Translations under genes and position numbers: made by a program
The notes under the pieces: model-generated
Databases searched by the model: none
Told to the model about the DNA's origin: nothing
The model's input: only the letters and a program-made list of their open reading frames with translations
Assembly: GCA_003559475.1 (NCBI GenBank)
Contig: PWLF01000170.1
Location: 1 to 55,846, forward strand
Length of the DNA stretch: 55,846 nucleotides
Reading direction: 5' to 3'
Source: Bacteroidales bacterium
Lineage (GTDB): Bacteria; Bacteroidota; Bacteroidia; Bacteroidales; UBA7960
Shown: positions 17,595 through 45,293 of the stretch, one piece after another
How the letters are laid out: every line of letters starts with the position of its first letter
Numbering within the stretch: the first letter of the stretch is position 1

Positions 17595-17786
17595 AGTATA
17601 TTTTTATGATAGTTTTAATTGTCAAAATTACATTAATTTATTGAAATATCAGATTTTATAGTTAAAATTGCTTGTTATAAAACTCAAAAATGATAAAAAT
17701 AATTTGTTAAAGTTTTTAGTTTTATTTTTTACTGTTATTTTTACACCCTATTTTAAAATTTATTGTTTAATTTAATTGTATTACAG

Positions 17787-19817
17787 ATGAAAAAATTAAT
17801 AGTTTTGTTATTTTCGGCTTTATTAATAGTATCTCAGGATGCTTATTCAAATAAGCAGGCGATGGTTCCGGAAACTTTGTGGGAGTTTGGGAGAGTCGGT
17901 GGAATTCAAGTTTCTCCTTGTGGTAACGATTTGCTTTTTACCATAACATATTATGATGTGGAAGAAAATATCAGTCAAAGAGATATTTATACCGTTCCTG
18001 TTGCCGGAGGTACTCCTGTTAATATAACAAATAGTGAACATAATGAGTTTAATGCTATGTGGCGTCCTGATGGTGAGAAAATCGGATATTTGAGCTCAAA
18101 AAGCGGAACAGTGCAATTATGGGAAATGAATATTGATGGAAGCGACCCTAAGCAAGTTACCGATATAGAAAAAGGAATAAATGGTTTTGAATATAGCCCG
18201 GATATTGAGCATATTTATTTTATTAAAAGAGTGAAACTTGAAGAATGTCCGCGTGATAAACATCCGGATTTGCCCAAATCAAACGCCTTAATTTATGATG
18301 ATTTGATGTATAGACATTGGGATAGATGGCATGATTATTCATATAGTCATATATTTATTGCCCCATATGATGATGGAAGTATCGGTGAATATTATGATAT
18401 AATGGAAGATGAGCCCTGGAACTCACCACTGCCTCCTTTTGGGGGAATAGGACAAATAAGTTGGACTCCTGACGGAAAAAAATTAGCATATACTTGCAAA
18501 AAGAAAAAAGGTAAAGATTGGGCGTTAAGCACAAATTCGGATATTTATCTTTACGATATTGAAACAGGTGAAACAGAAAATTTGACTCCATTTAATGAAG
18601 GATATGATAGAAATCCTGTTTTTTCTCCCGATGGCAAATATATGGCTTGGGAAAGCATGGAAACACCGGGATTTGAATCGGATAAAAGTAGAATAATGAT
18701 AATGTATCTTGGAGATGGATCATATAAGGAATATTCAACCGGGTTTGACCAAAGCTCAAGAAATATTAGATGGTCGGAAAATAGTGAAAAATTATATTTT
18801 ATAAGTGGAATACATGCCACTTATCAATTATATAGCTTGAATATTGAAGATTATAAAATTAAGCAGATTACAGAAGGGTGGCATAATTATAACTCTTTTG
18901 ATCTTGCCGGAGACTATTTGGTTGGAGCGAGAATGAGCATTTCATCACCTGTCGAAATTTATCGGGTTGATAAAAAATCAGGCTCACAAGAAATGGTTAC
19001 TTTTGTGAATGAGCAAGTATTTGAAAAAATTAATATGGGAGAAGTCGAAAAACGATGGATTGAAACAACAGATGGTGAAAAAATGCTTACATGGGTAATT
19101 TATCCTCCGGGTTTTGATCCTGATAAAGAATATCCGGCATTACTATTTTGTGGTGGCGGTCCTCAAAGTGCTGTTAGTCAGTTTTTTTCTTATCGTTGGA
19201 ATTTTCAGTTAATGGCAGCTCATGATTATGTCATTATAGCTCCTAATCGCAGAGGGTTACCTACTTTTGGACAAGAGTGGAATGATCAGATAAGCCAAGA
19301 TTATGGAGGGCAAAATATGCAAGACCTTATGAGTGCTGTGAGAGTTCTTAAAAAAGAACCTTTTATTGATGAAGAAAGAATTGGCGCTGTTGGTGCTAGT
19401 TATGGCGGATTCTCCGTGTTCTGGCTTGCAGGTCATCATGAAGGGCTTTTTAATGCCTTTATAGCTCACTGTGGAATGTTTAACTTTAAAAGCTGGTATG
19501 GAACAACCGAAGAAATGTTTTTTGCTAATCATGATATAGGAGGGCCATACTGGGAAACTCCTACACCTAACAGTTATGACTTTTCTCCGCATAGATTTGT
19601 GCAAAACTGGGAAACTCCAATTATGGTTATACATGGCGCTAAAGATTATAGAGTGCCTAAATCGGAAGGATTGCAAGCATTCAATGCAGCTCAACTAAAT
19701 GGAGTTCCAAGCAGACTAATGTTTTTTCCTGATGAAAATCATTGGGTCTTGAAACCTCAAAATAGCATTTTATGGCAAAGAGAGTTTTTTAAATGGCTTG
19801 ATAAATGGCTTAAGTAA
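17787..19817 (+). CDS. S9-family serine peptidase (prolyl oligopeptidase / dipeptidyl peptidase type) with N-terminal beta-propeller
   Basis: GASYGGF nucleophile elbow, then HGAKDYRVP and ENHW. The track start at 17763 is a TTG. MKKLIVLLFS at 17787 gives a normal signal peptide. Confidence 0.85.
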   Translation: MKKLIVLLFSALLIVSQDAYSNKQAMVPETLWEFGRVGGIQVSPCGNDLLFTITYYDVEENISQRDIYTVPVAGGTPVNITNSEHNEFNAMWRPDGEKIGYLSSKSGTVQLWEMNIDGSDPKQVTDIEKGINGFEYSPDIEHIYFIKRVKLEECPRDKHPDLPKSNALIYDDLMYRHWDRWHDYSYSHIFIAPYDDGSIGEYYDIMEDEPWNSPLPPFGGIGQISWTPDGKKLAYTCKKKKGKDWALSTNSDIYLYDIETGETENLTPFNEGYDRNPVFSPDGKYMAWESMETPGFESDKSRIMIMYLGDGSYKEYSTGFDQSSRNIRWSENSEKLYFISGIHATYQLYSLNIEDYKIKQITEGWHNYNSFDLAGDYLVGARMSISSPVEIYRVDKKSGSQEMVTFVNEQVFEKINMGEVEKRWIETTDGEKMLTWVIYPPGFDPDKEYPALLFCGGGPQSAVSQFFSYRWNFQLMAAHDYVIIAPNRRGLPTFGQEWNDQISQDYGGQNMQDLMSAVRVLKKEPFIDEERIGAVGASYGGFSVFWLAGHHEGLFNAFIAHCGMFNFKSWYGTTEEMFFANHDIGGPYWETPTPNSYDFSPHRFVQNWETPIMVIHGAKDYRVPKSEGLQAFNAAQLNGVPSRLMFFPDENHWVLKPQNSILWQREFFKWLDKWLK

Positions 19818-20161
19818 TGACAAATTTAAAAAAAGGTATAAAAACAATTAGTTTGGATGAGTTTTGCGATTTAGCAAATAAACAAGGACTTAATAAATTC
19901 TTTACTTCAAAGGAAATTTCTGATTATGGCAAAGAAAAAAAATTAAAAAGTCTGGCAGCCAGATATTTGATAAAGAAATATATTATTAGTAATTATAAAA
20001 ACCACGTAGATTATAAAGATATCGAAATCTTAAATAAAACAAATGGCAAGCCAATAATTAATACCAAATTTGATGATATAAAGAAAAATATTATGTTCAG
20101 TATATCTCATACAAGAGAAAGGGCAACGGTATTAATAGTGTATAAACAATTACGGAATTAG
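19817..20161 (+). CDS. AcpS-type 4'-phosphopantetheinyl-transferase-like protein (possibly degenerate)
   Basis: Size is 114 aa. FT..E.......SLAARY..K, NGKP and SISHT...A follow the AcpS layout. The start overlaps the peptidase stop (TAATG). It ends in TAG. Confidence 0.55.
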   Translation: MTNLKKGIKTISLDEFCDLANKQGLNKFFTSKEISDYGKEKKLKSLAARYLIKKYIISNYKNHVDYKDIEILNKTNGKPIINTKFDDIKKNIMFSISHTRERATVLIVYKQLRN

Positions 20162-25397: not shown

Positions 25398-26015
25398 CTA
25401 TTTGTTTGCTTTACATAAAGAGATTTTTGGGATTATAAAATCACTGAGTTCTTTAACAAGGGTTTCTATAGAATATTCTTCTGTATTAATTTCAATATCA
25501 GGATTTTCAGGAACTTCATAAGGGGAGTCTATTCCGGTAAAATTTTTTATAAAACCTTTTCTAGCTTTTTCGTATATGCCTTTTTTGTCTCTGGATTCAC
25601 AAGTTTCAAATGATGAATTAACATAAACTTCAATAAAATCATCAGAGCCTATTATATCTTTAGCCAATTGACGAATTTTTTTTGTAGGGCTTATAAAGCT
25701 ACTTATAACTACTATCCCGGCGTTTAAAAACATTTTCGAAATTTCTGCTGCCCTGCGAATATTTTCTTCGCGTCCTTCTAATGAATAATCTAAATCTTTG
25801 TTTAAATTTTTTCTTAAAAAATCTCCATCAAATAATTGTGTGAAAAAACCCATTTCTTGCAATTTTTTATCAAGATTTTTTGCAATCGTTGTTTTCCCTG
25901 AACTTGATAAGCCGGTCATCCAAATAACTTTAGACTTTTGGTTGAAAAACGCTTCTTTCTTCTTTCTTTTGTTTATGTCATCGTTTCTTAATGACTTAAT
26001 TGAACAATTACCCAT
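25398..26015 (-). CDS. cysC: Adenylyl-sulfate (APS) kinase
   Basis: VIWMTGLSSSGKTTIA P-loop, LDGD.LR..L..DL.(F/Y)S...R.ENIRR, and ISP in FISPTKK. Confidence 0.9.
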   Translation of the reverse strand: MGNCSIKSLRNDDINKRKKKEAFFNQKSKVIWMTGLSSSGKTTIAKNLDKKLQEMGFFTQLFDGDFLRKNLNKDLDYSLEGREENIRRAAEISKMFLNAGIVVISSFISPTKKIRQLAKDIIGSDDFIEVYVNSSFETCESRDKKGIYEKARKGFIKNFTGIDSPYEVPENPDIEINTEEYSIETLVKELSDFIIPKISLCKANK

Positions 26016-26147
26016 AGTTTTTAGTTATTTAACTTTATAAGAGTTGATAGTTTTAATAATAAACAAAAGTAGTAAAATTTAGTGTTTATTGTTATTTTAA
26101 ATAAATCCCATGTAATTTTATCATAAAAAAAATTGAAAATTTATTAT

Positions 26148-26155
26148 TACTTTTG
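26148..26155 (+). promoter_or_regulatory. Candidate -7 box (TACTTTTG) for the 26236-35726 gene run
   Basis: Exact TAnnTTTG match about 80 nt upstream of the first ATG on this strand. Confidence 0.35.
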
Positions 26156-26235
26156 TCATCTTAACCTACGCAAAATTTATTAAGTTAAATCATCATTTAT
26201 TTAACAACTAAATAGAGTTTTAATTATAATTTATT

Positions 26236-26370
26236 ATGAAAGAAAAAGACTTATATGTCGATTTTAAACCACAACAAGCTGTTTATTATGTTGAAAAAGA
26301 TGATAGTAGTTTTGGTATGGTTGTTAGTGGCTCTCAATTATCTCATGATTATTTAGATGATTATTATTAG
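26236..26370 (+). CDS. Small ORF (44 aa) with acidic, tyrosine-rich C-terminus. It is either a separate peptide gene or the 5' part of a TAG-interrupted gene continuing into 26443-26715.
   Basis: My translation is MKEKDLYVDFKPQQAVYYVEKDDSSFGMVVSGSQLSHDYLDDYY, then TAG at 26368-26370. It is below the ORF-track length cutoff. It is in the same frame as the next ORF, and the 72 nt between them contain no other stop. Confidence 0.35.
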   Translation: MKEKDLYVDFKPQQAVYYVEKDDSSFGMVVSGSQLSHDYLDDYY

Positions 26371-26442
26371 AAGAAAAGGAATCTTGAAGCTAATCTAAGA
26401 GAAAAAATAGTTAATAATGAAATTAGTCCCGTCTATTATTAT

Positions 26443-26715
26443 ATGACACTGCAAGAAATGGGAGTTGGCGATTTAGCATCTAGAGTTGGGATAAGCAAAA
26501 GGAAATTAAAAAAACATTTTAAACCGGAATATTTTCAAAAGTTATCTTTAAAAGTATTAAAAAAGTATTCGATAATATTTGATATTCCTGTTGTTTCAAT
26601 GTTACAGTTAATGATAATAAAACAAGAAGATAAAGATAAAATAAGTGTTGAGTATTTGAAAAGTGATAATGAAAGTTTTATAATAACAAAAATCGGATTA
26701 AAAAATAATGGATAA
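26443..26715 (+). CDS. Small helix-turn-helix (XRE-like) protein
   Basis: DLASRVGISKRKLKKHF......SLKVLKKYS.IFDIPV resembles an HTH_3-type layout. The stop overlaps the next start (ATGGATAA). Confidence 0.5.
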   Translation: MTLQEMGVGDLASRVGISKRKLKKHFKPEYFQKLSLKVLKKYSIIFDIPVVSMLQLMIIKQEDKDKISVEYLKSDNESFIITKIGLKNNG

Positions 26716-27712
26716 GGTAATAGATTTCGAGCACAATATGGCTGCTCATTGTGAAACAGGTACGCTTACTGCATTACTAAGATATAAGGGCTTTGATATA
26801 ACTGAACCTTTAATTTTCGGTATAGCTAATGGAATCTTTTTTGGTTATCTTGAATCATCAAATTTTCCTTTCCCAATGTTTATTGTTAGAAGTCGCCCAG
26901 GGCAAGTAAGAGAAAATATTTCCCGGCGATTGAATATTAAAATTAATAAGTATAGATTTAGCAATAAAGAAAAAGGAGAAGCAAAACTTGATGAACTAAT
27001 AGGCAAAGGAATACCAACAGCTGCACAAGTTGATTTTTTTTATATGACTTATATGCCGGATTGGCAAAGAGTTCATATAAATGTTCATTTTATTAATATA
27101 ATTGGTAAGCAAGACGGAAAATATATTGTCAGTGATAGCTATTTCCCGAAAAAGAGTGAATTGGATAGCGAAACTATGCGTAAAGCTCGTTGGGCAGGAG
27201 GACACATGTCTCCAAAAGGATTTATATATCATCCGGCAGAAATACCTGAAAATATTGACTTAAAAAAACCTATAGTAAAAGGAATAAAAAGAGCTTGCAG
27301 AAATATGATCGGATTGCCGGTGCCTTTTATTGGAGTTAAAGGGATATATAAATTTGCTAACAAAGTTAAAGAATGGCCTTCTTTGGCAAGAGATACAGAG
27401 CACTTATCTCATGAAATAATGAAAATTAATATTTTATTGGAAGACCAAGGAACAGGTGGAGCAGGATTTAGATTTATGTATGCAACTTTTTTACAACAAG
27501 CTGCGGAAATATTAAATAATAAAGACCTTGACGACATGTCAAAAAGTATGATGGAAAATGGCGATAAATGGAGAGAAATCTCATATTTTGCAGCAAAAAT
27601 TGGTAAAAATCGAGACTTAGGCAAAGATAGACTTGAAGAACTTAGCTGCCTCATTAAAAATAGAGGTGATTATGAAAAAAAAATTTTTAGTGAATTAAAA
27701 AAAATGGTTTAA
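26708..27712 (+). CDS. BtrH_N / DUF4872-type protein (papain-like fold; ACP-dependent acyltransferase or peptidase family)
   Basis: N-terminal F.HNMAAHCETGTLTALLRYKG......LIFG...G.FF.Y is the BtrH N-terminal pattern with the candidate nucleophile Cys. The length of about 330 aa fits the two-domain form. Confidence 0.7.
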   Translation: MDKVIDFEHNMAAHCETGTLTALLRYKGFDITEPLIFGIANGIFFGYLESSNFPFPMFIVRSRPGQVRENISRRLNIKINKYRFSNKEKGEAKLDELIGKGIPTAAQVDFFYMTYMPDWQRVHINVHFINIIGKQDGKYIVSDSYFPKKSELDSETMRKARWAGGHMSPKGFIYHPAEIPENIDLKKPIVKGIKRACRNMIGLPVPFIGVKGIYKFANKVKEWPSLARDTEHLSHEIMKINILLEDQGTGGAGFRFMYATFLQQAAEILNNKDLDDMSKSMMENGDKWREISYFAAKIGKNRDLGKDRLEELSCLIKNRGDYEKKIFSELKKMV

Positions 27713-27752
27713 ATTTGCTTATATTTTCAAAATTTAATACAAGTTTTACAAT

Positions 27753-28043
27753 ATGACAGTAGATGAAAGAAAACAATTAACTCATGAAATAAAACACCTC
27801 ATTATTGAAAAATTAAAAATTACGCATGTTACAGCAGATGAGGTTGATGATGATACACCACTATTTGGAAAAGATAATCCTATGGGGCTAGACTCTATAG
27901 ATGCTATTGAAATAGTCTTAGCATTAAAAGAGAAGTATGACGTAAGACTAGCAGACCAAAATCTTGCAAGAGAAATATTAACTTCCGTTAACTCTATTGC
28001 TGAGTTTCTTGAAAAAGAATTTAATGAAAGAAAAAAATCGTAA
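27753..28043 (+). CDS. Stand-alone acyl/peptidyl carrier protein
   Basis: GLDSIDAIEIVLALKEKYDV holds the DSxD/L phosphopantetheine attachment motif. Size is 96 aa. Confidence 0.85.
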   Translation: MTVDERKQLTHEIKHLIIEKLKITHVTADEVDDDTPLFGKDNPMGLDSIDAIEIVLALKEKYDVRLADQNLAREILTSVNSIAEFLEKEFNERKKS

Positions 28044-28079
28044 TTCAATATATATCCCCCGATTATAGACCTGTTGCGG

Positions 28080-28125
28080 GTTTACTAATATTAAAATGAA
28101 TGGTAATATTAGTAAACTGTTTTTA
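28080..28125 (+). terminator. AT-rich perfect 14-bp hairpin plus T-tract after the carrier-protein gene (terminator or attenuator)
   Basis: GTTTACTAATATTA (28080-28093) pairs with TAATATTAGTAAAC (28104-28117) across a 10-nt loop, then TGTTTTT. Confidence 0.45.
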
Positions 28126-28196
28126 AATATTTTTTTCTAAATAGTTTGTTAGATTAAAGTTTTTTATAAATCAGTTGTTAAATATATCGCATTTAA

Positions 28197-29267
28197 ATGA
28201 ATCACTCGTATTTGCTTATTGGTACTTCTTTTACTAAGTTAATTTCTATTATTGTTAGAAATGGCGGAATATCAATAAATAATATAAACAGGCTTTTATT
28301 TTTGTTTCAAGGAAGTATTTGGTCATCAATTTTTTCTATGATAGAAAAAATCAAATTTGCTAAAAAACTCAAATACTGTTCAGAAGTTATCAATCCAATA
28401 ATAATTGTTGGGCACTGGCGTACGGGTTCTACCTTTTTGCATCAAATCTTATCATTAGATAAACAGTTTGTAACTCCTAGAGTTGTTCAGGTTTCTGTGC
28501 CGGGAAGTTTGCTCGTTTCTGAACCGTATTTCAGGTCTGTAATGAACAGAGTAATGTCAAAGAAAAGACCTATGGATAATGTTGCTCTTGGTCCTGACGA
28601 ACCCCAAGAGGATGAGTATGCACTTTTGAAAATTGCGAAAAACACCCCGCTAGAAAAATTAGTTTTTAAATCGAAAAAAGAAAATTTTTCTGAGGTTTTA
28701 TTGGATATGAATAAAGATTCTTTAAGTAGTAAGCAGTCAGAAAAATTAAAAGTTTTTTTAAAGAAAATATATTATAAAAACCCAGGTATAGTATTGCTGA
28801 AAAATCCATTTCATTCATACCGAATTGAGGAGTTAAAAAAAACGTTTCCTAAAGCTCGATTTATTCATATATATCGTGATCCGGTTAATGTTATCCCTTC
28901 AACTGTAAAAATGTTTAACATTATTGGGAAACAAAACCGGCTTAAAGGCAAATGGGTTAATGAAAATTTATATACTATTACGAAATCTTTTAATCATCTT
29001 TGGAAGTGTCTGAAAAATCAACTCTATTGCTTGTCAAAGAATGATTATATTGAAATTAAATATGAGGAACTTGATAGTGACCCTCAAAAGATAATAAAAA
29101 CAATATATAATCATTTTAATTTAGAATATACTTCTGATTTTGATTCAAAAGTTCAAAACTTTTTATTTAATGTCAAAAATTATAAAAAAAATAAGTTTAG
29201 TTTATCTGCTGAAGAAAAAGATCATATAAAGAAATCATGTAAGGATTTTTTAAACCATTATTATTAG
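28197..29267 (+). CDS. PAPS-dependent sulfotransferase (Sulfotransfer_3-like)
   Basis: 5'-PSB loop IIVGHWRTGSTFLHQIL and 3'-PB-like IHIYRDPVNVIPS. Confidence 0.75.
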   Translation: MNHSYLLIGTSFTKLISIIVRNGGISINNINRLLFLFQGSIWSSIFSMIEKIKFAKKLKYCSEVINPIIIVGHWRTGSTFLHQILSLDKQFVTPRVVQVSVPGSLLVSEPYFRSVMNRVMSKKRPMDNVALGPDEPQEDEYALLKIAKNTPLEKLVFKSKKENFSEVLLDMNKDSLSSKQSEKLKVFLKKIYYKNPGIVLLKNPFHSYRIEELKKTFPKARFIHIYRDPVNVIPSTVKMFNIIGKQNRLKGKWVNENLYTITKSFNHLWKCLKNQLYCLSKNDYIEIKYEELDSDPQKIIKTIYNHFNLEYTSDFDSKVQNFLFNVKNYKKNKFSLSAEEKDHIKKSCKDFLNHYY

Positions 29268-29281
29268 TTAAATTTATAAAA

Positions 29282-30547
29282 ATGAAGTTACGACTTATTT
29301 ATCCGAAATGGGAAAAATTGCAGGAGCAAACTACTTTTAATCTTCCTCCTCATGGTCCGGTTGTTATGGCAGCTGCACTGCCTAAAGACATCGAGGTTGA
29401 GTTTTTTGATGAAAATGTACAGGAGGTTAAATTTGATGAAAATGTTGATCTTGTTGCAATTTCTGTTATGCTTACAGCACAAATTAAAAGGGGATGGCAA
29501 ATTGCTGATAAATACAGGCAAATGGGGGTGAAAGTCATTTTTGGCGGTATTGCCACAATGCTTCATGCTGAAGAAACACTCAATCATGCTGACTCAGTTT
29601 TCCTGGGAGAAGCTGAAGGACGAATGCATGATGTTATTGATGATTTTAAACAAGGTAAGCTGAAAAAAGTATATAATTATTTGCTTAAACATCCGGATAT
29701 AAGTTGTATTGGAACGGCAAGAAGGGAAATTCTTAATCGAGAATATTATTTTCATAAAGGAGTTCAAATGGTTGACCTCGTACATGCTTCAAGAGGCTGT
29801 AGATTTGTTTGTTATCCTTGCTGTGCTAATTTTCTTGGAGGAAAATTATTTAGACCCAGACCTATTGATAAAGTTGTTGAAGAAATGGAAAGTATTGATA
29901 ATAACAGACTTTTTATAGTTGATAATTCTTTAGCGCAAGATACTCAATGGGAAAAAGACTTGTTTAAAGCAATGATACCGCTGAAAAAAAAATGGTGTAG
30001 TCATACTATAGAAGATAAACCTGAAGTGCTCGATCTAGCCGCACAGGCTGGGGCCTGGTATGTTTATCAAGCAATATTCGACACCTCTGATTATATAAAA
30101 GAAAGAGTGAAAAGATACCATGACCACGGAATAATGGTTGAAGGTACAATTTTTCTTGGAATGGATAATCAAACAGAAGATGACATACTTAGACTAATTG
30201 ATTTTCTGTTGGAAATTGAACTTGACCTTGCTGAATTTACCGTGCTAACTCCTTTTAGACATACTAAATCTTATGATGACCTTTTAAGGCAAGGACGTAT
30301 TATTGACAAAAATTGGGATAATTATAATGCAGGAAAAGTCGTTTTTAATCCTAAACACATTAAACCGGAAAGACTTCAAGAACTATATCATTATGCATGG
30401 GATACTTTCTATGAGAAAGAAACGCAAGAACAAAAAATGTTTAAACTAATGCTTAATGTTATTGAAAAAGAAATTAAAGACGGAACATATAAATCAAGAA
30501 GGGATGATTTAGCAGAAAGTAGTTTTGGAAATAAAATAAAGAGATAA
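29282..30547 (+). CDS. B12-binding-domain radical SAM enzyme (class B)
   Basis: N-terminal Rossmann-like cobalamin domain (DLVAISVMLT......A...R..G.KVIFGG) followed by ASRGCRFVCYPC (CxxxCxxC). Confidence 0.85.
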   Translation: MKLRLIYPKWEKLQEQTTFNLPPHGPVVMAAALPKDIEVEFFDENVQEVKFDENVDLVAISVMLTAQIKRGWQIADKYRQMGVKVIFGGIATMLHAEETLNHADSVFLGEAEGRMHDVIDDFKQGKLKKVYNYLLKHPDISCIGTARREILNREYYFHKGVQMVDLVHASRGCRFVCYPCCANFLGGKLFRPRPIDKVVEEMESIDNNRLFIVDNSLAQDTQWEKDLFKAMIPLKKKWCSHTIEDKPEVLDLAAQAGAWYVYQAIFDTSDYIKERVKRYHDHGIMVEGTIFLGMDNQTEDDILRLIDFLLEIELDLAEFTVLTPFRHTKSYDDLLRQGRIIDKNWDNYNAGKVVFNPKHIKPERLQELYHYAWDTFYEKETQEQKMFKLMLNVIEKEIKDGTYKSRRDDLAESSFGNKIKR

Positions 30548-30550
30548 GCT

Positions 30551-30940
30551 ATGAGTAAAAAAGTTAATGATTATGAGCAAAACTATATTGAAGAGATATT
30601 CGATTTTAAAGGATTGTGGGATATGCCATCCAAATGTGGCCTAAAGGTGATCGAAAAAACCGATAAAACAGTCGTTATTGTTACAGACTTATATCATGAA
30701 AATCCAGGGACTTCAATTACTGAATTTTGTACTCAGTTAGCTACAATCATAGCAAAAGAAAAAAATATCAATATTAATAAAATGATATTTATTCAACATA
30801 ATCCGGATCTTGGTTCTAAATATGATTTTTTAGTCGAGTCTTTTGACCTTGTTAAATTTGAAATAGTAAATAATGAATTTCAAAATCCAAAATGGGAAAA
30901 TATCAGTAAAGAAGATGTTGAAAAAATAATTAATGAATAA
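30551..30940 (+). CDS. Hypothetical protein, 129 aa, no family recognised
   Basis: The ORF starts 4 nt after the radical SAM stop, on the same strand. No motif recognised. Confidence 0.45.
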   Translation: MSKKVNDYEQNYIEEIFDFKGLWDMPSKCGLKVIEKTDKTVVIVTDLYHENPGTSITEFCTQLATIIAKEKNININKMIFIQHNPDLGSKYDFLVESFDLVKFEIVNNEFQNPKWENISKEDVEKIINE

Positions 30941-31034
30941 TTGATTTTGTTTTATCACTTTATTATTATTTAGATTAAAAATATTTTAAGTTTTTTTGAT
31001 TTATTTTATTTGTTAGTTAACTTTGCTTTAAAGA

Positions 31035-33392
31035 ATGTTAAAAAAAAGCTTATTTATATTATTCGTTTTGTTTTATTCATTTTGCTTTTATGGTCAGGAA
31101 TCTGTTAAGCAAAATGTTAGAGGGGTTGTAAAGGATAATATAACCGGTCAGCCTTTAAAGAATATTAATATAAAGATTTTTAATGATAATTTTGAAACCG
31201 GTACAACAACAGACAGTCTTGGACTTTTTCTAATTAAAAATATTCCTGTTGGTTATTATAGTATATACTTTTCCTCTGTTGGTTATGAAAGTAAATTTAT
31301 TCAAAGAACAAGGTTGGTAAGTTCACGTGAATTGTATTTAGAAGTAAATATGGATGTTTCTGTTGAAACTCTTGATGAAACGGTTATTTTTTCGTCAGTT
31401 AGGAAAGATCAGCCAAACAATCCCCGTGCTTTGGTTAGTTCAAGGTCGTTTACCCTTGATGAAGCAAATAAATATGCCGGCAGTTATGGAGACCCCTCAA
31501 GAATGGCAATCAATTATGCAGGAGTTTTGCCTGCAAGGGATAATAGAAATGACATAATTATCAGAGGAAATACATCCAATGGTTTGTTATGGAAGCTTGA
31601 TGGTATGGAAATTCCAAACCCTAATCATTTTGGAGCTACCGGATCTACAGGTGGCCCAATAACTATAATAAATAATAATTTGCTCATGACTTCTGATTTT
31701 CATACGGGAGCTTTTCCTGCTCAGTTTAGTAATGCTACCTCAGGAGTGTTTGATCTAAATATGAAATCCGGCAACCCTGATAATTATAATAATTGGGTAC
31801 AACTCGGATGGAACGGATTAGAATTAGGAAGTGAAGGTCCTGTGCCCGGAGATAATAAAATAACTTATGCTACAGCCTATAGATATTCTTTTGTTGATAT
31901 ATTAGCTAAAATGGGGCTAACTCTGCCTGAAAAAGTTAGCTATCAAGATTTCTCTTTGAAAACAAATATACCGGGTACATCTTTAGGAAACTTTGCAATT
32001 ACTGCTATTGGTGGGAAAAGTAGTATAGAATTGCTTGACTCTGATAAACCAACAGACCAATGGTTGTTTGAAAATAATGGAGAAGATGTAAGTAATTCAT
32101 ATAAAATGGGAGCAATTGGGCTTTCTCATAATAAACAAATCGGAGATAATAGTGTATTAAACTCTAACTTGTATGCTACAGGAAATAGAGTAGAGAATGT
32201 TATTGATACTTTTTCCATTGAAAATCCACAACCATTTTTATGGGCACATGAAAAATCCGAAGAGATAAGAACTTCATTAAGTACGGTTTTTAGGCATAGA
32301 TATTCCTCTAATTCCGACTTTTCTTTTGGTGTTTATATTGATAATTTTAACACAAATTTTGTTGATAGTCAGTTTGTAAAAGGAAATTACAGAAATGTTA
32401 TTAACTCTATAGATAGGCAAATGCTTTTATTAAGGAGCTATTCGGATGTTTATTATAGATTAAGTAATGATTTTAGAACTTATTTTGGTGTAAATTTTCT
32501 GCACTTTGATTTTACCGGAGAAAATATTATTGAACCTCGCTTGGGATTAAAGTGGGATATATCCGATAAAAATTCTTTAAGTTATGGTTCAGGGCTACAT
32601 AGTCAAATGCAACCCAGAATGATGTATTTTGTTATGACTGAAGTTGATGGGGACCAACATTACACAAATAAAAACTTAAAGTTTACCAAAAGCTTTCATA
32701 ATGTTATAGGTTATGATCATCTTATAAGTGATGATTTGAGATTAAAACTGGAAGCGTATTATCAATATATTTATGATGCGCCTGTTTCTTATTCTGAACC
32801 GGCATATTCTTTATTGAATTATGGGGCTGAATTTTATGTTGAGCGAATGGATAGTCTTGTAAATGAAGGTGAAGGTCGTAATTATGGTATAGAAGCAACA
32901 TTGGAAAAATTTTGGAGTGATAAATACTTTTTTTTAATAACAGGGTCACTCTTTGATTCAAAATATACGGGCAAAGATGGAGTAGAAAGGAATACAGCAT
33001 TTAATGGAAGATTTGCTGTGAATATGCTGGGAGGCTACGAATTCGTTATGCCGGGAGGGAAAAGATCAATGAATATTGGCTTAAATCTGACTTATGCCGG
33101 AGGAAGACCCTATGTGCCTTATGATATTGAATCCTCATTGGATAATAGAGAGGTTAAGTTGCTTTGGGAAAATGCCTATAGTGTTCAACGTAATAATTAT
33201 AAAAGAGCAAGTATTAGAATTGGATTTAAACATAATTTTGAAAGATTTAATGTTGAAAGCGCTATTGATTTGCAATATAGAACTGATTATACAAGTATAT
33301 ATTTTGACAGATTAGATTTACAAACAGGTGAAATAATAAAAACATACTCAATGGGTTTTTATCCAATGGCAAATGTGAGAATCGAGTTTTAA
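31035..33392 (+). CDS. TonB-dependent-receptor-like outer membrane protein with N-terminal carboxypeptidase-regulatory-like domain
   Basis: Signal peptide. V.G.V.D..TGQPL..I.I (CarbopepD_reg pattern). Plug-like LDE......GDPSR......GV......N...IRG. Long beta-rich C-terminus ending in F. Confidence 0.7.
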   Translation: MLKKSLFILFVLFYSFCFYGQESVKQNVRGVVKDNITGQPLKNINIKIFNDNFETGTTTDSLGLFLIKNIPVGYYSIYFSSVGYESKFIQRTRLVSSRELYLEVNMDVSVETLDETVIFSSVRKDQPNNPRALVSSRSFTLDEANKYAGSYGDPSRMAINYAGVLPARDNRNDIIIRGNTSNGLLWKLDGMEIPNPNHFGATGSTGGPITIINNNLLMTSDFHTGAFPAQFSNATSGVFDLNMKSGNPDNYNNWVQLGWNGLELGSEGPVPGDNKITYATAYRYSFVDILAKMGLTLPEKVSYQDFSLKTNIPGTSLGNFAITAIGGKSSIELLDSDKPTDQWLFENNGEDVSNSYKMGAIGLSHNKQIGDNSVLNSNLYATGNRVENVIDTFSIENPQPFLWAHEKSEEIRTSLSTVFRHRYSSNSDFSFGVYIDNFNTNFVDSQFVKGNYRNVINSIDRQMLLLRSYSDVYYRLSNDFRTYFGVNFLHFDFTGENIIEPRLGLKWDISDKNSLSYGSGLHSQMQPRMMYFVMTEVDGDQHYTNKNLKFTKSFHNVIGYDHLISDDLRLKLEAYYQYIYDAPVSYSEPAYSLLNYGAEFYVERMDSLVNEGEGRNYGIEATLEKFWSDKYFFLITGSLFDSKYTGKDGVERNTAFNGRFAVNMLGGYEFVMPGGKRSMNIGLNLTYAGGRPYVPYDIESSLDNREVKLLWENAYSVQRNNYKRASIRIGFKHNFERFNVESAIDLQYRTDYTSIYFDRLDLQTGEIIKTYSMGFYPMANVRIEF

Positions 33393-33492
33393 TTTTTATA
33401 AAAATTATATTTATATCTATTTTATTATTAATTTTGTTTTGTTTTTATCATAAAAGGAATTAAAAAGCATTGTTTAACTAAAAAAAATTAAA

Positions 33493-34065
33493 ATGAAAAA
33501 ATTATTTTTATTACTCGGTATTGTGCTAATTTTTGCCATAAAAAGTTGTGGCCCGTCTATTCATTTGGTTGAAGGAGACCCTTCAACTATTAAAGGTGAA
33601 GAATTTGTTGAGGTTCAATTTACTTATGATAATATGAGAGTTGGTAATGAGCCTGAAGAGGATTATGTTGCAAGAAGAATTGAGAGTGATGGAGAGGAAT
33701 GGCATGAAGCATGGGTTAATAATCGTGAAAGCCGTTTTGAGCCCAGATTTATTGAAACTTTAAACAGGTATACTGAACCGCAAGGGTTAATTTTTGAAAA
33801 AAATCGTACCGATACAAGGTATATTATGAAAGTTAATACTTATTATACTGAACCCGGGTTTTATGTTGCTGTAAGAAATGCACCGGCTAAAGTTGGATTA
33901 ACGATTAGTTTTGTTGACAGGGATCAACCTGACAATACTCTTGTTAAATTTGATATACCCGAGGTTGAGGGAATAGTTACACCGGATGTCGGAACCAGAA
34001 TTCATTCGGCATATAGCATGGGCGGAAGACTTTTAGGAAGTGAGCTCGCAGGACATATAAGATAA
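33493..34065 (+). CDS. Putative lipoprotein, 190 aa, no family recognised
   Basis: Signal peptide with lipobox-like LIFAIKSCG. Confidence 0.5.
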   Translation: MKKLFLLLGIVLIFAIKSCGPSIHLVEGDPSTIKGEEFVEVQFTYDNMRVGNEPEEDYVARRIESDGEEWHEAWVNNRESRFEPRFIETLNRYTEPQGLIFEKNRTDTRYIMKVNTYYTEPGFYVAVRNAPAKVGLTISFVDRDQPDNTLVKFDIPEVEGIVTPDVGTRIHSAYSMGGRLLGSELAGHIR

Positions 34066-34211
34066 ACGATTTTTTATTCTTGTTTTTAAAGTAAAAAACT
34101 CATAATAACTCTGAGTTTGTTTTAATTTGTGGAGGTTAAATATTAATATGTTTTTAATATTAGTGTAAAGGTTTGTTTCTAAGCAAGCTGTTTTTAGATA
34201 TTGTTAAGAGA

Positions 34212-35726
34212 ATGAAGAAATTATTATTAATAAAACCTGCAGGTGTTTTAAAACATTATTCTACACAAATTGAAGTAGCTAAATTGCTAGGGAAACGAAC
34301 TGGAAGTGTGCCACTTGCTTTGCCTGTGATTGCTTCGATAACTCCTAAAAACTATAAAATAAAAATTATTGATGAAGATGTAAGTTCTTTGCCAAAATGG
34401 TTTAAACCTGACTTGGTTGGGATTACTATGATAACTTCAAATTCTGAAAGAGGATATGAGATTGCAAAAAAATACCGTAAGTTAGGAGCTAAAGTAGTTT
34501 TAGGTGGAGCATATCCCAGCTTTAATATTGAAGAAGGATTAAAATATGCTGATAGTATCATAGTCGGAGAAGCTGAAAACTCCTGGAAAAAATTAATTAA
34601 AGACTTCGAAAAAAAATCTTTAAAGTCAGTATATCGTGCTGAAGAACATATTGAGTTTTCTGAAGCCATTATGCCAAGATGGGATTTGATAGATACAAAA
34701 AAAATGTTTTCAATTCCTGTTCAAGCATCAAGAGGATGCCCTTTTATGTGTGAGTTTTGTCTGACAACTCAAATATATGGAAGAAAGGTTAGGCGAAGAA
34801 AAATAGAGGATGTTATTAATGAAATTAAAAAACTTCCTAAAAAGAATATTCTTTTTGTTGATGAAAATTTAACTATTGATAAAAAATATGCTAAAGAGCT
34901 TTTTCGACAACTAATACCTTTAAAAGTAAGTTGGATTTGCCAAAGTAGTGTTGACGTTGCAGATGATAAAGAGATGCTAAACTTAATGGCGGAAGCAGGG
35001 TGTAGGCATTTAGTAATTGGCTTCGAATCCCTTAAACCTGATAGCTTAAAGGAAACACATAAATTCCAAAATAATCCTGAGAATTATGTTAGAGTAATTG
35101 AAAATATTAATAAAGCAGGGATTCATGTATATGCTTCCTTTATTATTGGTTTTGATGAAGATAAACCTGAAGATTTTGATGTTTTTAGAAAGTTTATTGA
35201 AAATTCTCAGTTGCCGGTATTTAATTTAAGTATTCTAGGTGCTTCAAAAGGAATGGAACTACACAAAAGGCTGGAAAAGGAAAACAGAGTTTTGTGCAAC
35301 CTTAGCAAGAAGTTCTTTGTGGGAGGATATCCTGTTTTAAAATACAAGAATTTTAACAACAAAGATTTTTTTGATAAATACAATGAGATAATTGAGCATT
35401 TGTATTCTTTTTCGCAGATAAGAAAAAGAACAATAAGATTGTTAAAAAAAGGATATTTCTGTAAAGATAGAAACAGTAAAGTTGTTTCTTTATATGAAAA
35501 AATAAGAACGACAATTATTTTGTTTTTTTCTTATAATATTTCAAAAAATAAGGATAAGCGTTTGTTTTTTAAAGAAGTTATTGCTTTGATCAAATCTAAA
35601 AAAGTGTCTGTTGGAGAAGCAGCATCAATATTATTGATTTTTGAAGCTATTACACGGCACATTAAAAAAGATAAAAAGCAAAGAAAGCTATATTATGAAG
35701 AACTTAAAAGGATTGAACTAGATTAG
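34212..35726 (+). CDS. Second B12-binding-domain radical SAM enzyme (class B)
   Basis: DLVGITMITS.....EIAKKYRKLGAKVVLGG followed by ASRGCPFMCEFC. The track start at 34173 is a TTG. MKKLLLIKP at 34212 matches the start of the paralogue at 29282. Confidence 0.85.
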   Translation: MKKLLLIKPAGVLKHYSTQIEVAKLLGKRTGSVPLALPVIASITPKNYKIKIIDEDVSSLPKWFKPDLVGITMITSNSERGYEIAKKYRKLGAKVVLGGAYPSFNIEEGLKYADSIIVGEAENSWKKLIKDFEKKSLKSVYRAEEHIEFSEAIMPRWDLIDTKKMFSIPVQASRGCPFMCEFCLTTQIYGRKVRRRKIEDVINEIKKLPKKNILFVDENLTIDKKYAKELFRQLIPLKVSWICQSSVDVADDKEMLNLMAEAGCRHLVIGFESLKPDSLKETHKFQNNPENYVRVIENINKAGIHVYASFIIGFDEDKPEDFDVFRKFIENSQLPVFNLSILGASKGMELHKRLEKENRVLCNLSKKFFVGGYPVLKYKNFNNKDFFDKYNEIIEHLYSFSQIRKRTIRLLKKGYFCKDRNSKVVSLYEKIRTTIILFFSYNISKNKDKRLFFKEVIALIKSKKVSVGEAASILLIFEAITRHIKKDKKQRKLYYEELKRIELD

Positions 35727-42740: not shown

Positions 42741-43868
42741 TTAGTTAACTGCTTGTAAAGTTTCATTTTTATACTGGAGGGGTGTCTTGCCTGTCTCTTT
42801 CTTAAACCAAAAGTAGAAAGTAGCTTTGGATTTAAAACCGGATTGTTTTGAAATTGAATCAATTGTATGTTTTTGAAAAGAATTGCTTCTGATTAATTTT
42901 TTTGCTTCAGCAACGCGCATAGTATTTATTAAAGAATAAAAATTGCTGTTGGCTTCTTCCTTAATAGATATAGATAAGTAGGTTCTGTTGATATTAAGAT
43001 CTCTTGATATGCTGAATAATGACAATTCAGGATTTATATAAAGTTTATCAGTAATTATATGATCCTTTAGCTTATTATATATACTTTTAGTGTCAATATT
43101 AGTTTTTGTTTTTTTTGATGATTCAAGATCTTTTTCAACTGCTTCTTTTTTTATAATACTATTATCAATTTTTTTATGACAATTTGAATAAATAGCTTTT
43201 TGCTTAAATCCGAAAAAGCCCAAGATAAAATGCTGTACTATATAAATTGAATTAGATATATGTATATAATTTATATTTGAGACTAAAAAATTCATATCTC
43301 TTATAATAAAAACAAAAATGAAGTCTAGGTTAATTATAAATAGGTAGATAAATAAATATACCTTTAGCCATTTTAGATTGTTGTTGCTAAGGTAAAAAGA
43401 GAAGTTGTTTTTTATGTTACTTGTGTGTTTTCTTAATAGTAAGAATATTGCCAGAGAGTAGCTTAGAACTTGAGCAGCATACAATGATACAATAATTAGA
43501 TGTTGTAATGTATTGCTAAAATATTCAGATAAAATACTTCTTGCTAAAATTAGAAATAATAATGCTATAAAAGGAGGGGTGAAATGCAAAAAGTATTTCC
43601 TTCTAAAAGTAAAATTAATTTGCACCAAACATTTTGTGTAAATATATAAAATCGGCATTATTAAGAATATAAGCATATTCATAATATAAAAGCCATAAGG
43701 ATAAGTTATACTACTTGATATTGCCAGTAGATAATAGCAACAAGTGCATAACAAAACAGCACTTAATATTTTTTTTTGCTTTTCTTTTTCTGTTAAACTA
43801 ATAAAACCAAATATGAATGTTATAACTACAATAATGACATTAAATAAAAAAGCCGGATTATTTCCCAT
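42741..43868 (-). CDS. Membrane-anchored AraC-family transcriptional regulator (about 7 TM N-terminal domain plus C-terminal HTH)
   Basis: I count seven hydrophobic helices in residues 1-225. The C-terminus reads LSLFSISRDLNINRTYLS..IKEE...NFYSLIN.MRV.EAKKLI........I..IS..SGFKS..TFY.WFKK.TGKTP..Y (AraC HTH). It is a paralogue of 50446-51603. Confidence 0.8.
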   Translation of the reverse strand: MGNNPAFLFNVIIVVITFIFGFISLTEKEKQKKILSAVLLCTCCYYLLAISSSITYPYGFYIMNMLIFLIMPILYIYTKCLVQINFTFRRKYFLHFTPPFIALLFLILARSILSEYFSNTLQHLIIVSLYAAQVLSYSLAIFLLLRKHTSNIKNNFSFYLSNNNLKWLKVYLFIYLFIINLDFIFVFIIRDMNFLVSNINYIHISNSIYIVQHFILGFFGFKQKAIYSNCHKKIDNSIIKKEAVEKDLESSKKTKTNIDTKSIYNKLKDHIITDKLYINPELSLFSISRDLNINRTYLSISIKEEANSNFYSLINTMRVAEAKKLIRSNSFQKHTIDSISKQSGFKSKATFYFWFKKETGKTPLQYKNETLQAVN

Positions 43869-43983: not shown

Positions 43984-44045
43984 GTATTAATTGCCCAATT
44001 TAAACATGTTTGTTGCAAAGTTATAAAGTTTTGAATTTATATTTG
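43984..44045 (+). promoter_or_regulatory. Conserved promoter, copy 1: 23-nt operator-like motif plus -7 box
   Basis: GTATTAATTGCCCAATTTAAACA (43984-44006), then TATATTTG (44038-44045) starting 54 nt after the motif start. The ATG is at 44088. Confidence 0.6.
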
Positions 44046-44087
44046 TTTTTTTATAAAATTAAAATAAAATTATTAAAAATTAAAAAA

Positions 44088-45179
44088 ATGAAATCAAGTA
44101 AAATTATTGCATTTATAATAACAGTTTTTATAATACAAACTGTAGCATTTTCAGAATTATCTATAAGTCCTGATGGTACTGAACCGCATCCGGCTGCTAT
44201 AATAGATTTAATTTCAAATGACAAAGGGGTTCTTTTCCCTCGGATGTCAACAGATGATCGAGAAGAAATAGATACTGAACCTGAAGGAGATTGGGACTCT
44301 GCGGAATCTTTGATTATTTTTAATGAAACTACCAATTGTTTTGAAACCTATCTGTTAGGTTCTTGGCATGAGATGTGGTGTTTAAGCCCTTATATTGAAA
44401 GCCCTTGTAAAGATTATGAAAATGAAGATAGTTCCACAGGCTTTTTATTGGTAGATTCGCGTGATGATGAAGAATACGAATTAATTGAACTTGGCGGCCA
44501 ATGCTGGATGGCAGAAAATTTGGCATATTTGCCTGAAGTTCATAATAATAGTGATTTCGAAACCCAAGGGAATAATCAAGATCCAGGATATGGTGTTTAT
44601 GGTTATAATGGAGATGATGTAAATGATGCAAAGAATCACACGCATTTTCTGAGTATTGGAGATGTGAATGTTTATGAAAATTATGGAGTATTATATAACT
44701 GGTGGGCAGCAATGGGCCAATCAAATGCAACTGGTTGCAATGGAACAGGGGCTCCACCCAATGACGCATGCGATACGCCTGTTCAAGGCGCATGTCCTGA
44801 TGGATGGCACTTACCAAGTGATTATGAGTGGACTACATTAGAAAGGTATATATGCAATGATGCAGATAATGAAGATTGCGATACCAACTTTCCTTATGAT
44901 GAATCTGATACCGGCTATCGAGGCAATGATGAAGGTGATAGGTTGAAATACTCTAATTGGTGTTGGAGTGATCCATGTGCAACTAGCGGTTTTGCAGCTC
45001 GTATGAGTAAATCCAGAAATACAACCGGCACTTTCCCGGATGTTTATACAGGAAGCTGGTGGAGTAGTTCAGGCGATGCTAGTGGATTTTACAGACGCCT
45101 TCGAGATGATTACACTTCAGTTTTTAGGAATGAAGCAGATAAATCTTTCGGCTATAGTGTTAGATGTGTAAGAGATTAA
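44088..45179 (+). CDS. Array member P1: signal peptide plus shared N-module plus FISUMP lectin-like domain (subclass A)
   Basis: MKSSKIIAFIITVFIIQTVAFS/ELSISPDGTEPHPAAIIDLISNDKGVLFPRMST..., GGQCWMAENLAYLPEV, YGVLYNWWAA, CPDGWHLPSDYEW, GYSVRCVRD. The track start at 44010 is a TTG inside the promoter. Confidence 0.8.
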   Translation: MKSSKIIAFIITVFIIQTVAFSELSISPDGTEPHPAAIIDLISNDKGVLFPRMSTDDREEIDTEPEGDWDSAESLIIFNETTNCFETYLLGSWHEMWCLSPYIESPCKDYENEDSSTGFLLVDSRDDEEYELIELGGQCWMAENLAYLPEVHNNSDFETQGNNQDPGYGVYGYNGDDVNDAKNHTHFLSIGDVNVYENYGVLYNWWAAMGQSNATGCNGTGAPPNDACDTPVQGACPDGWHLPSDYEWTTLERYICNDADNEDCDTNFPYDESDTGYRGNDEGDRLKYSNWCWSDPCATSGFAARMSKSRNTTGTFPDVYTGSWWSSSGDASGFYRRLRDDYTSVFRNEADKSFGYSVRCVRD

Positions 45180-45230
45180 TGCGGTACTGATAAAAAATGT
45201 TGCTTATAAGTCAACCATTATTTACAAGTT

Positions 45231-45293
45231 GTATTAATTGTCCAATTTGAACAGAATTATTTGTAAATATTTAAAGTTTTAAACCTATTTTTG
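45231..45293 (+). promoter_or_regulatory. Conserved promoter, copy 2
   Basis: GTATTAATTGTCCAATTTGAACA (45231-45253), then TATTTTTG (45286-45293) starting 55 nt after the motif start. The ATG is at 45323. Confidence 0.6.

Follow-up and report, generated by a model that had tools for sequence, protein, structure and literature searches.

Within contig PWLF01000170.1 of a Bacteroidales bacterium (assembly GCA_003559475.1), a row of open reading frames (ORFs) on the forward strand, spanning positions 26236 to 35726, encodes a BtrH-type protein, a carrier protein, a sulfotransferase (ST) and two radical S-adenosylmethionine (SAM) enzymes, and it is this row, with a divergent cysC gene beside it, that we consider here. 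The contig was analysed over its full length of 55,846 nucleotides (nt), which is called the window below. The features of the row and of its immediate neighbour are as follows.

25398-26015, minus strand: cysC, adenylyl-sulfate (APS) kinase (NCBIfam PRK03846, 221 bits against a cut-off of 163)
26236-26715, plus strand: darG', a DarG-family gene of a divergent subfamily, interrupted by a TAG codon, with a C-terminal part resembling a Cro/C1-type helix-turn-helix (HTH) domain (from reading frame, profile and alignment)
26708-27712, plus strand: darH', a putative BtrH-fold acyltransferase dependent on an acyl carrier protein (ACP) (BtrH_N and DUF4872 domains; NCBIfam DarH)
27753-28043, plus strand: dedicated ACP with a DSID serine motif (Pfam PP-binding, 35 bits)
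28080-28136, plus strand: AT-only hairpin with T-runs in the spacer between the ACP and ST genes (arms 28080-28093 and 28104-28117)
28197-29267, plus strand: ST of the type using 3'-phosphoadenosine-5'-phosphosulfate (PAPS) (Pfam Sulfotransfer_3, PF13469, 111 bits)
29282-30547, plus strand: rSAM1, class-B-type radical SAM protein of 421 amino acids (aa), with CxxxCxxC at C173/C177/C180 and B12-binding and Radical_SAM domains
30551-30940, plus strand: p129, small conserved partner of rSAM1, 129 aa, no domain or fold match
31035-33392, plus strand: OMP785, secreted protein of 785 aa with a CarboxypepD_reg domain (Pfam, 47 bits)
33493-34065, plus strand: lipo190, putative lipoprotein of 190 aa (signal peptide, Cys19)
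34173-35726, plus strand: rSAM2, second class-B-type radical SAM protein, with DUF4070 (Pfam), a variable accessory gene

Genes of the row

The initial annotation of this DNA had counted ten ORFs in the row; the strand and span it gave are right, but two of the ten are halves of one darG' gene, so that the row holds nine genes. Its junctions are exact, with an 8-nt overlap of darG' and darH' (ATGGATAA, at 26708-26715) and intergenic gaps of 14 nt (29267/29282) and 3 nt (30547/30551), and both Pfam and the motifs agree with its naming of a BtrH_N protein, a DSID carrier protein, a PAPS-type ST and two B12 radical-SAM proteins with CxxxCxxC. The three proteins it could not place are p129, OMP785 and lipo190, which can now be described as above, and its HTH protein was correctly recognised by a Cro/C1-HTH-like part but is the C-terminal half of darG' rather than a separate protein.

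The case for a single darG' gene is that one reading frame holds both the 44-aa ORF at 26236-26370 and the 90-aa ORF at 26443-26715, split only by a TAG codon (26368-26370) and 24 sense codons, that the read-through product matches the NCBIfam model DarG_fam (NF053536) across profile positions 17-127 of 131, and that this product can be aligned over its full length with 24 intact orthologues, 130-166 aa long. Its score of 65.2 bits is below the cut-off of 70, yet to judge from the sequence DarG' is clearly homologous to DarG, and canonical DarG itself matches Pfam HTH_26, a weak Cro/C1-type HTH signature. The column interrupted by the stop is variable among the orthologues (F/Y/A/L/E/W/I/D/Q/M), and one close relative (L007; related loci are numbered with the prefix L) has there a tyrosine codon (TAY) that is one base away from TAG. 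Either the TAG reflects a genuine nonsense mutation or it is an error of the assembly.

This gene structure bears on a suggestion of the initial annotation, namely that the row makes a sulfated, radical-SAM-modified peptide of the ribosomally synthesised and post-translationally modified kind (RiPP), with the 44-aa ORF at 26236 as precursor. Two radical-SAM genes and a sulfotransferase gene do indeed follow a short ORF, but this ORF is the conserved N-terminus of DarG, fused in frame to the HTH part in every relative. Moreover, there is no RiPP recognition element, peptidase or RiPP-type family match (the hits to ApyD, 63 bits with a cut-off of 750, and to rSAM_ocin_1, 37 bits with a cut-off of 282, are both sub-threshold), and the gene context is everywhere one of lipids or polyketides. 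We reject the RiPP reading of the 44-aa ORF on the strength of translation through the stop and of the alignment of 24 DarG sequences, and regard it as scarcely credible.

DarH' combines a BtrH_N domain (PF14399, 124 bits) with DUF4872 (150 bits) and passes the NCBIfam equivalog DarH_acyl (NF053550) over profile positions 1-325 with 312.4 bits against a cut-off of 300, this model being named 'BtrH-related acyltransferase' and marking flexirubin/dialkylresorcinol pathways. The residues H14-C15-E16, H127 and D143 are invariant in DarH' and common to canonical DarH, and we class the protein on its sequence as a borderline, divergent DarH member; a PDB sequence search with DarH' gave nothing useful. 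In one related locus (L015, 6838-7839) the darH' region translates with nine stop codons, from a frame error in ORF extraction or because the gene is disrupted. The ACP gene starts 40 nt downstream of darH', and in relatives the ACP always comes after darH'.

The spacer between the ACP and ST genes measures 153 nt in the window as against 11-44 nt in relatives. It contains the hairpin that the initial annotation had placed at 28080-28125, with perfect 14-nt arms, a 10-nt loop and T-runs after it, and this is the sole such element in the window. Scans of the window for sigma-70 promoters and terminators were uninformative in AT-rich Bacteroidota sequence, and the terminator scan missed the hairpin because it has no G-C pairs. 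The hairpin may act as an attenuator or a terminator. TAnnTTTG promoter motifs are present ahead of darG', OMP785 and lipo190 and none lies in the spacer between the hairpin and the ST gene, which weakly favours read-through or attenuation over an independent downstream operon.

The ST has a conserved, partly hydrophobic N-terminal extension of about 65 aa. Residues invariant across 24 orthologues include G72, W74, R75, G77, T79, R227, P229 and S235, which we read as PAPS-binding motifs. Searched against the PDB, the ST profile detects 2z6v (E 6e-16), 2zq5 (8e-14), the CurM ST (4gbm, 5.5e-10) and the OLS ST (4gox, 2e-8), the CurM and OLS match being a partial one (positions ~190-317) to the C-terminal part that binds the 3'-phosphate of PAPS, and a search with the single ST sequence gave no CurM or OLS match at E<=0.01. 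The ST is closest to lipid-type sulfotransferases, and many of its relatives are labelled by JGI as 'omega-hydroxy-beta-dihydromenaquinone-9 sulfotransferase' (an Stf3-type KEGG Orthology term), these labels being automatic.

One possibility raised by the CurM and OLS matches, and by the initial annotation, is that sulfate serves as a leaving group, with the ST sulfonating a hydroxyl of the ACP-bound chain and DarH' or another hydrolase then off-loading it to leave an alkene or a newly formed C-O or C-C bond. By analogy this would suit the ACP and ST genes, which are always adjacent and co-inherited, the ability of the ST profile to detect both enzymes, and the 4HBT thioesterase and enoyl-CoA hydratase (ECH) enzymes of some related clusters. 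However, the match covers the PAPS-binding part only and is weaker than that to 2z6v and 2zq5, the ST is stand-alone and outside any polyketide synthase (PKS) module, no thioesterase (alpha/beta-hydrolase) family is found among the ten ORFs, and the dedicated outer-membrane genes point to an amphiphilic product that is retained. We therefore find the logic of the CurM ST-thioesterase pair unsupported, the ST being no closer to CurM/OLS than to the mycobacterial Stf enzymes, and consider a leaving-group role unlikely.

The cysC gene is divergent from the row and 220 nt away. It encodes a bona fide APS kinase, the initial annotation had taken it as a plausible source of PAPS, and CysC is the probable PAPS supplier to the ST by an argument that is local, because adjacency of cysC to the ST recurs only in L001, which has cysC/cysD/cysN. 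Linkage to cysC as a conserved trait of the row was accordingly rejected.

Both radical-SAM proteins are assigned to the class-B type by motif (SRGCRFVCYPC and SRGCPFMCEFC around the CxxxCxxC cysteines) and by an N-terminal B12-binding domain, which in rSAM1 (PF02310) scores 35.2 bits and in rSAM2 33.9 bits against a cut-off of 32.1; Radical_SAM scores 22 bits in rSAM1 and 79 bits in rSAM2, and DUF4070 in rSAM2 27 bits. The two are 29-34% identical to each other, and neither reaches any NCBIfam cut-off (TIGR04072, whose cut-off is 360, gives 52 bits for rSAM1 and 66 for rSAM2). A PDB sequence search with rSAM1 gave nothing useful. Its AlphaFold2 model is nearest to AprD4 (TM-score 0.72), a diol dehydratase, and next to the methylases MgmA and TsrM, and the chemistry may thus be methylation, dehydration or rearrangement. 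The start of rSAM2 is probably the ATG at 34212 rather than the TTG at 34173, to judge from the N-terminus MKKLLLIKP that it would give.

The protein p129 has no Pfam or NCBIfam match, and when its AlphaFold2 model (pLDDT 84.5) was compared with the PDB by Foldseek no TM-score exceeded 0.37, normalised to the query. It has a set of invariant residues (G21, W23, P26, S27, C29, G30, L31, N51 and G53) together with four that are nearly so (K28, P52, T54 and S55). A distant p129 superfamily comprises 1326 cluster representatives (E<=0.001), among which P0400, P0449 and P0493 are fusions to DUF6166, a domain likewise of unknown function and the sole fusion partner seen in distant relatives.

OMP785 has a signal peptide and, beyond its CarboxypepD_reg domain, a remainder of about 650 aa that belongs to no family and ends ...RIEF; the signal peptide and this C-terminus suggest an outer-membrane beta-barrel, and a PDB search gave no match. 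For lipo190 there is no Pfam or NCBIfam family match.

Related loci and their gene context

Synteny was surveyed over 87 related loci mapped by tblastn, 80 of them from a genome scan for rSAM1, and 37 (the fully flanked loci) have at least 8 kb on both flanks. Three linked units emerge, namely the rSAM1-p129 pair, a block of DarG', DarH', ACP and ST, and OMP785 with lipo190, which often follow. In the first of these, 64 of the 80 loci have p129 no more than 200 nt downstream of rSAM1, and the two form an almost obligate pair. DarH', ACP and ST occur together in 14 of the 37 fully flanked loci, that is, in 14 of the 15 that have DarH' or ST at all, in agreement with the view of the initial annotation that the BtrH-type enzyme, the carrier and the ST belong together; ST without DarH' is seen only in L001, and DarH' without ST only at truncated loci. 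Orthologues of OMP785 follow rSAM1-p129 in 13 fully flanked loci, and lipo190, found in seven of the 37, has orthologues (28-54% identity) that adjoin OMP785 in L003, L005, L006 and L011 and lie near it in L010, L013, L016, L075 and L087. By contrast, orthologues of rSAM2 at 39% identity or more are confined to L036, L060, L079 and L083. The flanks do vary independently, as the initial annotation had allowed, in the case of rSAM2, cysC and the lpx genes, which are not co-conserved, but not in the case of the core.

The conservation of rSAM1 is high. There are more than 6000 homologues, the best 120 all being at least 70% identical, and across the 80 scanned loci, which represent several phyla, identity is 67-84%. 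These are mostly from Bacteroidales and other Bacteroidota, including Tannerella forsythia, with others, at about 70% identity, from Desulfobacterota, Myxococcota, Treponema and Chlorobiota. Between the window and L042, L050 and L052, rSAM1 is 69-70% identical where the MurF, AnmK and CCA enzymes of the same genomes are only 43-54% identical, and this excess over housekeeping enzymes implies strong functional constraint, horizontal spread, or both.

The context of the related loci is one of aryl-polyene (APE) and flexirubin genes. Among the fully flanked loci, 33 of 37 have one or more such markers within 10 kb, these being the FlxA tyrosine ammonia-lyase (TAL), the FlxY ligase, a ketosynthase (KS), DarB or an MMPL exporter. 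The closest relatives (L003 and L005-L007, rSAM1 77-84% identical) have the same eight genes in the same order, directly after genes for a KS, an ACP, an LpxL-type acyltransferase, an O-methyltransferase (OMT), an ApeP-like dehydratase and a flavodoxin. Elsewhere the neighbours include a GT2/DUF2062 glycosyltransferase, an MMPL-acyltransferase-methyltransferase fusion, CrtI-like FAD oxidases, a C45-type acyltransferase and a cassette of KASIII, two ECH and 4HBT genes. In L001 the ligase adjoining rSAM1-p129 passes the equivalog model for FlxY (670 bits, cut-off 520), with orthologues in 18 of the 37 fully flanked loci, and some relatives have DarB-type genes (in L041, 525 bits against 450). 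In T. forsythia, rSAM1 heads an operon of (DarA-like)-DarB-DarG-DarH-ABC transporter. The row is therefore neither an orphan nor new for Bacteroidota, as had been supposed from its sequence, since the same genes occur in flexirubin-, aryl-polyene- or dialkylresorcinol-type clusters of many relatives and are widespread in Bacteroidales, Marinilabiliales, Lentimicrobiaceae and Chlorobiota.

In L086 the genes are divergent from a set with an FlxA TAL equivalog (819 bits against 700), a ketoreductase (KR), a KS, an ACP, a TIGR04072 lipid radical-SAM protein (428 bits, cut-off 360) and another DarG-DarH pair, this one canonical. This locus (1-1154; 8156-9666) thus holds canonical DarG-DarH as well as DarG'-DarH'-ACP-ST, and its two BtrH-type acyltransferases suggest two separate acyl-transfer steps. 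We also note that the true TIGR04072 proteins form a third radical-SAM family, located between the LpxL-type acyltransferase and ApeP-like genes (L086, 1602-2960; L013, L016 and L023, ~800-2000), and that a related cluster may have up to three class-B-type radical-SAM families.

A further possibility is that the genes form an autonomous envelope-lipid system, taking fatty-acyl or 3-hydroxyacyl chains from fatty-acid synthesis to make a sulfated, methyl-branched outer-membrane lipid, possibly with a tie to the genes of lipid A. The initial annotation had drawn such a link through 3-hydroxyacyl-ACP to the neighbouring lpxA, lpxC-fabZ and lpxD genes. It would accord with a row that is intact save for darG' and has no APE genes for 26 kb upstream or 20 kb downstream, with the unrelated genes directly upstream of the corresponding genes in L087, and with the lipid A genes near some relatives (PagL in L003, lpxB in L061). 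However, tblastn with lpxA, lpxC-fabZ and lpxD against 84 related loci gave no matches, the 33 of 37 loci with APE or flexirubin markers speak for another partnership, and L087 itself has APE-type genes from about 3 kb downstream, retaining OMT, deacetylase and KS-like genes within 10 kb. As the window is a single 55.8-kb contig, core genes may also sit elsewhere in the genome. The link to the lpx genes is thus not borne out, and we judge an autonomous system to be improbable.

Reading of the module and its place in the window

We propose instead that the row at 26236-35726, with CysC as supplier of PAPS, is a conserved module for tailoring, assembly and export in the flexirubin-type (aryl-polyene/dialkylresorcinol) pigment-lipid pathways of anaerobic Bacteroidota, present here in detached form, and we put the probability of this reading at roughly 0.6. 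Its product is best read as a sulfated, radical-SAM-modified polyene or resorcinol lipid. Family assignments, catalytic motifs, co-inheritance and synteny with flexirubin markers are what we observe, and it is from these that we infer what the substrates and the product are and in which order the steps occur.

In the proposed mechanism, a polyene or fatty-acyl chain would be borne by the dedicated ACP and transferred by DarH', through its Cys-His-Asp residues and probably with the translationally coupled DarG', to a hydroxyl acceptor to form an ester, a role that follows the NCBIfam name for DarH in flexirubin assembly. The ST, using PAPS from CysC, would then O-sulfate a free hydroxyl of the lipid to give a stable sulfate ester. 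Oxygen-independent radical steps on the hydrocarbon skeleton could be carried out by rSAM1 with p129 and by the accessory rSAM2, the likeliest being C-methylation, dehydration or rearrangement, and OMP785 and lipo190 would deliver the product to the outer membrane.

Several points weigh against this reading. The score of DarH' barely exceeds its cut-off, where canonical DarH of T. forsythia reaches 399-400 bits, and that of DarG' falls short, as does that of the intact darG' orthologue in L003 (58 bits). The esterifying role of DarH comes from an annotation, and a study of Chitinophaga pinensis proposed another enzyme, FlxW, for the esterification step (PMC3992019). With AprD4 as the nearest structure to rSAM1, methylation and the use of cobalamin are both uncertain. 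No sulfated flexirubin or aryl polyene was found reported in the literature. In the window itself darG' has its premature TAG, and the hairpin could uncouple transcription of the two halves of the module. Lastly, no KS, KR or dehydratase, TAL (FlxA), FlxY, DarA/B, GT2, MMPL or exporter genes are found across the 55.8 kb, so that the module must be regarded as detached here, and because the core KS, TAL, FlxY and DarB genes are absent the locus does not identify the acyl donor and acceptor. Nor does the window hold a homologue of KASIII or DarB (of the resorcinol-forming DarA/DarB pair). The initial annotation had likewise seen no KS, adenylation or condensation domain and no standard PKS, non-ribosomal peptide synthetase or fatty-acid synthase cluster, and we find none in the whole window.

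Given the nonsense codon in darG' and the lack of core genes nearby, the module either relies on genes elsewhere in the genome or is starting to decay. It could indeed be a remnant that has lost its function on separation from the core, the stop in darG' being its first visible lesion, a view that draws on the presence of an in-frame TAG in 0 of 24 orthologues, on the absence of the core genes from the window and on an ACP-ST spacer that is enlarged and holds a hairpin not seen in relatives. Yet none of the other eight genes is truncated, all being co-linear with their orthologues, the 90-aa C-terminal ORF of darG' begins at a conserved methionine, and the TAG, with a tyrosine codon one base away in L007, may be an assembly or sequencing error in what is apparently a metagenome-assembled contig. 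We think it improbable that the module is no more than a remnant, although the window copy may be impaired.

As to the wider setting of the proposed flexirubin-type module, few kinds of biosynthetic gene cluster in bacteria are as widespread as the aryl-polyene/flexirubin type (bioRxiv 10.1101/2020.12.19.423268), yet in only a handful of organisms are the complete products known. To this chemistry the module adds sulfation, together with one to three radical-SAM steps of the class-B type. The ST/rSAM1/p129/OMP module is an undescribed variant, NCBIfam having already named DarG, DarH, FlxA and FlxY. Nowhere in the literature searched are flexirubin or aryl-polyene clusters described as having the ST, p129 or this family of radical-SAM proteins, that on DUF4872/BtrH_N gave no description of the module, and no already characterised pathway was found there into which the genes would fall, in line with the initial annotation. 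Being more conserved than housekeeping enzymes, without a family model or a solved structure related to it by sequence, and with a partner of unknown fold, rSAM1 is a well-defined target for enzymology, and the rSAM1-p129 pair is also found beyond Bacteroidota in Treponema, Desulfobacterota and Myxococcota. More tentatively, anaerobic Bacteroidota, abundant lineages of gut, rumen and sediment among them, might make sulfated aryl-polyene or resorcinol membrane lipids that have so far gone unseen, by means of a second DarG'/DarH'/ACP set, a lipid ST and rSAM1 with its 129-aa partner of novel fold, an oxygen-independent step replacing the different chemistry of aerobic producers; this is a conjecture that we hold as possible but doubtful. 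If true, the presence of such a sulfated pigment lipid in the outer membrane of Bacteroidales from gut and rumen would have a bearing on the emerging 'bacterial sulfated metabolome'. The window locus itself is a detached, possibly impaired copy of the module rather than a unique new pathway.

The genes that flank the module are housekeeping ones. To one side are Dpp5, AcpS-like, SprF, GldJ, MurF and AnmK; to the other are LpxA, LpxC-FabZ and LpxD, whose genes lie downstream of the row and are convergent to it. Rfam and transfer RNA scans of the window gave no matches, and hence no cobalamin or SAM riboswitch. One neighbour is of particular relevance:

19817-20161, plus strand: AcpS-like phosphopantetheinyl transferase (PPTase), 114 aa (Pfam AASDHPPT_N, 30.6 bits against a cut-off of 27)

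This protein, which the initial annotation had rightly called AcpS-like, is a divergent PPTase that falls below the TIGR00516 acpS cut-off and is 35-40% identical to PPTase-like genes within the KASIII-ECH-ECH-4HBT cassettes of L001, L014 and L021; a link of its gene to the module is possible but unproven. Its start overlaps the stop codon of Dpp5, which in the window (region 17763-20161) is 6 kb upstream of the module, and in L087 (16413-18951) a Dpp5 orthologue (53% identity) stands directly after the module, between it and the APE genes, a placement that may be the remnant of an older synteny. The 116-aa gene that follows Dpp5 in L087 was rejected as an orthologue of the AcpS-like gene (E = 12).

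Further from the module, 44010-50380 holds six tandem genes for proteins of about 300-390 aa, of which three have a Fib_succ_major domain at high confidence and a fourth a weak match to it. Genes for two AraC-type (HTH_18) regulators, encoded on the other strand (42741-43868 and 50446-51603), enclose the array, and AT-rich dips (GC 0.21-0.23) lie by it at 43-44 kb and 51-52 kb. Amid tRNA synthetase genes, 10178-12463 and 14191-17100 encode two large proteins that contain Flg_new_2 (InlB B-repeat-like) repeats, one with Fib_succ_major and the other with an M12 metalloprotease domain and a Por_Secre_tail sorting domain of the type IX secretion system. The regions 5136-6630 and 8419-9948 hold a VTC-domain protein next to its DUF4956 partner, a pair for which a role in polyphosphate is possible, and, near it, a bacterial GH3-family gene (acyl-acid amido synthetase-like); neither the pair nor the GH3-family gene has an evident tie to the module.

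Comparison with known systems

In butirosin biosynthesis, BtrH and BtrI carry out ACP-dependent acyl transfer to an aminoglycoside. DarH' is like BtrH in its BtrH_N domain (124 bits), its conserved Cys-His set and its adjoining stand-alone carrier protein. It differs in having the extra DUF4872 and a lipid or polyketide context, with no aminoglycoside or gamma-glutamyl genes, and the group that it acylates is probably a hydroxyl, not an amine.

With CurM and OLS (PDB 4gbm, 4gox) the module shares a Sulfotransfer_3-type, PAPS-dependent ST that is tied to a carrier protein, at the level of remote profile similarity. The window ST is, however, stand-alone, has its N-terminal extension of about 65 aa and no thioesterase, and is a weaker match to these enzymes than to the mycobacterial Stf. 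In sulfomenaquinone biosynthesis, Stf3 acts after hydroxylation by Cyp128. The mycobacterial lipid sulfotransferases (2z6v, 2zq5), as the best solved-structure matches to the ST, offer the analogy of sulfation of a hydroxylated membrane lipid, although the similarity is low and partial and there is no menaquinone context at the module. The layout of L001 is similar to that of the Bacteroides cholesterol sulfotransferase locus BT_0416, in which PAPS genes lie beside an ST (PMC9417993), the two being likened by gene layout alone.

The domain plan of rSAM1 and rSAM2 is that of the TIGR04072 proteins of ladderane/APE-type lipid clusters and of AprD4, MgmA, TsrM and CysS. Unlike these known enzymes, which act without such a protein, rSAM1 has an obligate partner of 129 aa.

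The arcuflavin dar cluster of Azoarcus sp. BH72 comprises darA, darB, the hypothetical darD, the BtrH-like peptidase darE, the ABC transporter darF/darI and the ACP darC (PMC3949708). Like the module, it groups a gene for a small hypothetical protein with those for a BtrH-like protein and an ACP, a trio which in arcuflavin stands beside the resorcinol genes, and the T. forsythia operon mirrors this dar layout, with rSAM1 at its head. The arcuflavin cluster is without an ST and without radical SAM genes, and it has an ABC transporter in place of OMP785 and lipo190.

The closest comparison is with the flexirubin clusters of Flavobacterium johnsoniae and C. pinensis (PMC3992019), which comprise FlxA TAL, FlxY ligase, KS/KR/DH genes like those of a type II PKS, and DarA/DarB. 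They are like the module in DarG and DarH, and it is beside FlxA, FlxY, KS and KR that the module of the relatives is found. Unlike the module in the window, the published flexirubin clusters, in the accounts consulted, include no ST, rSAM1-p129 pair or OMP785/lipo190. Compared with them, DarG' and DarH' of the window form a divergent paralogous subfamily that is able to coexist with the canonical pair, as it does in L086.

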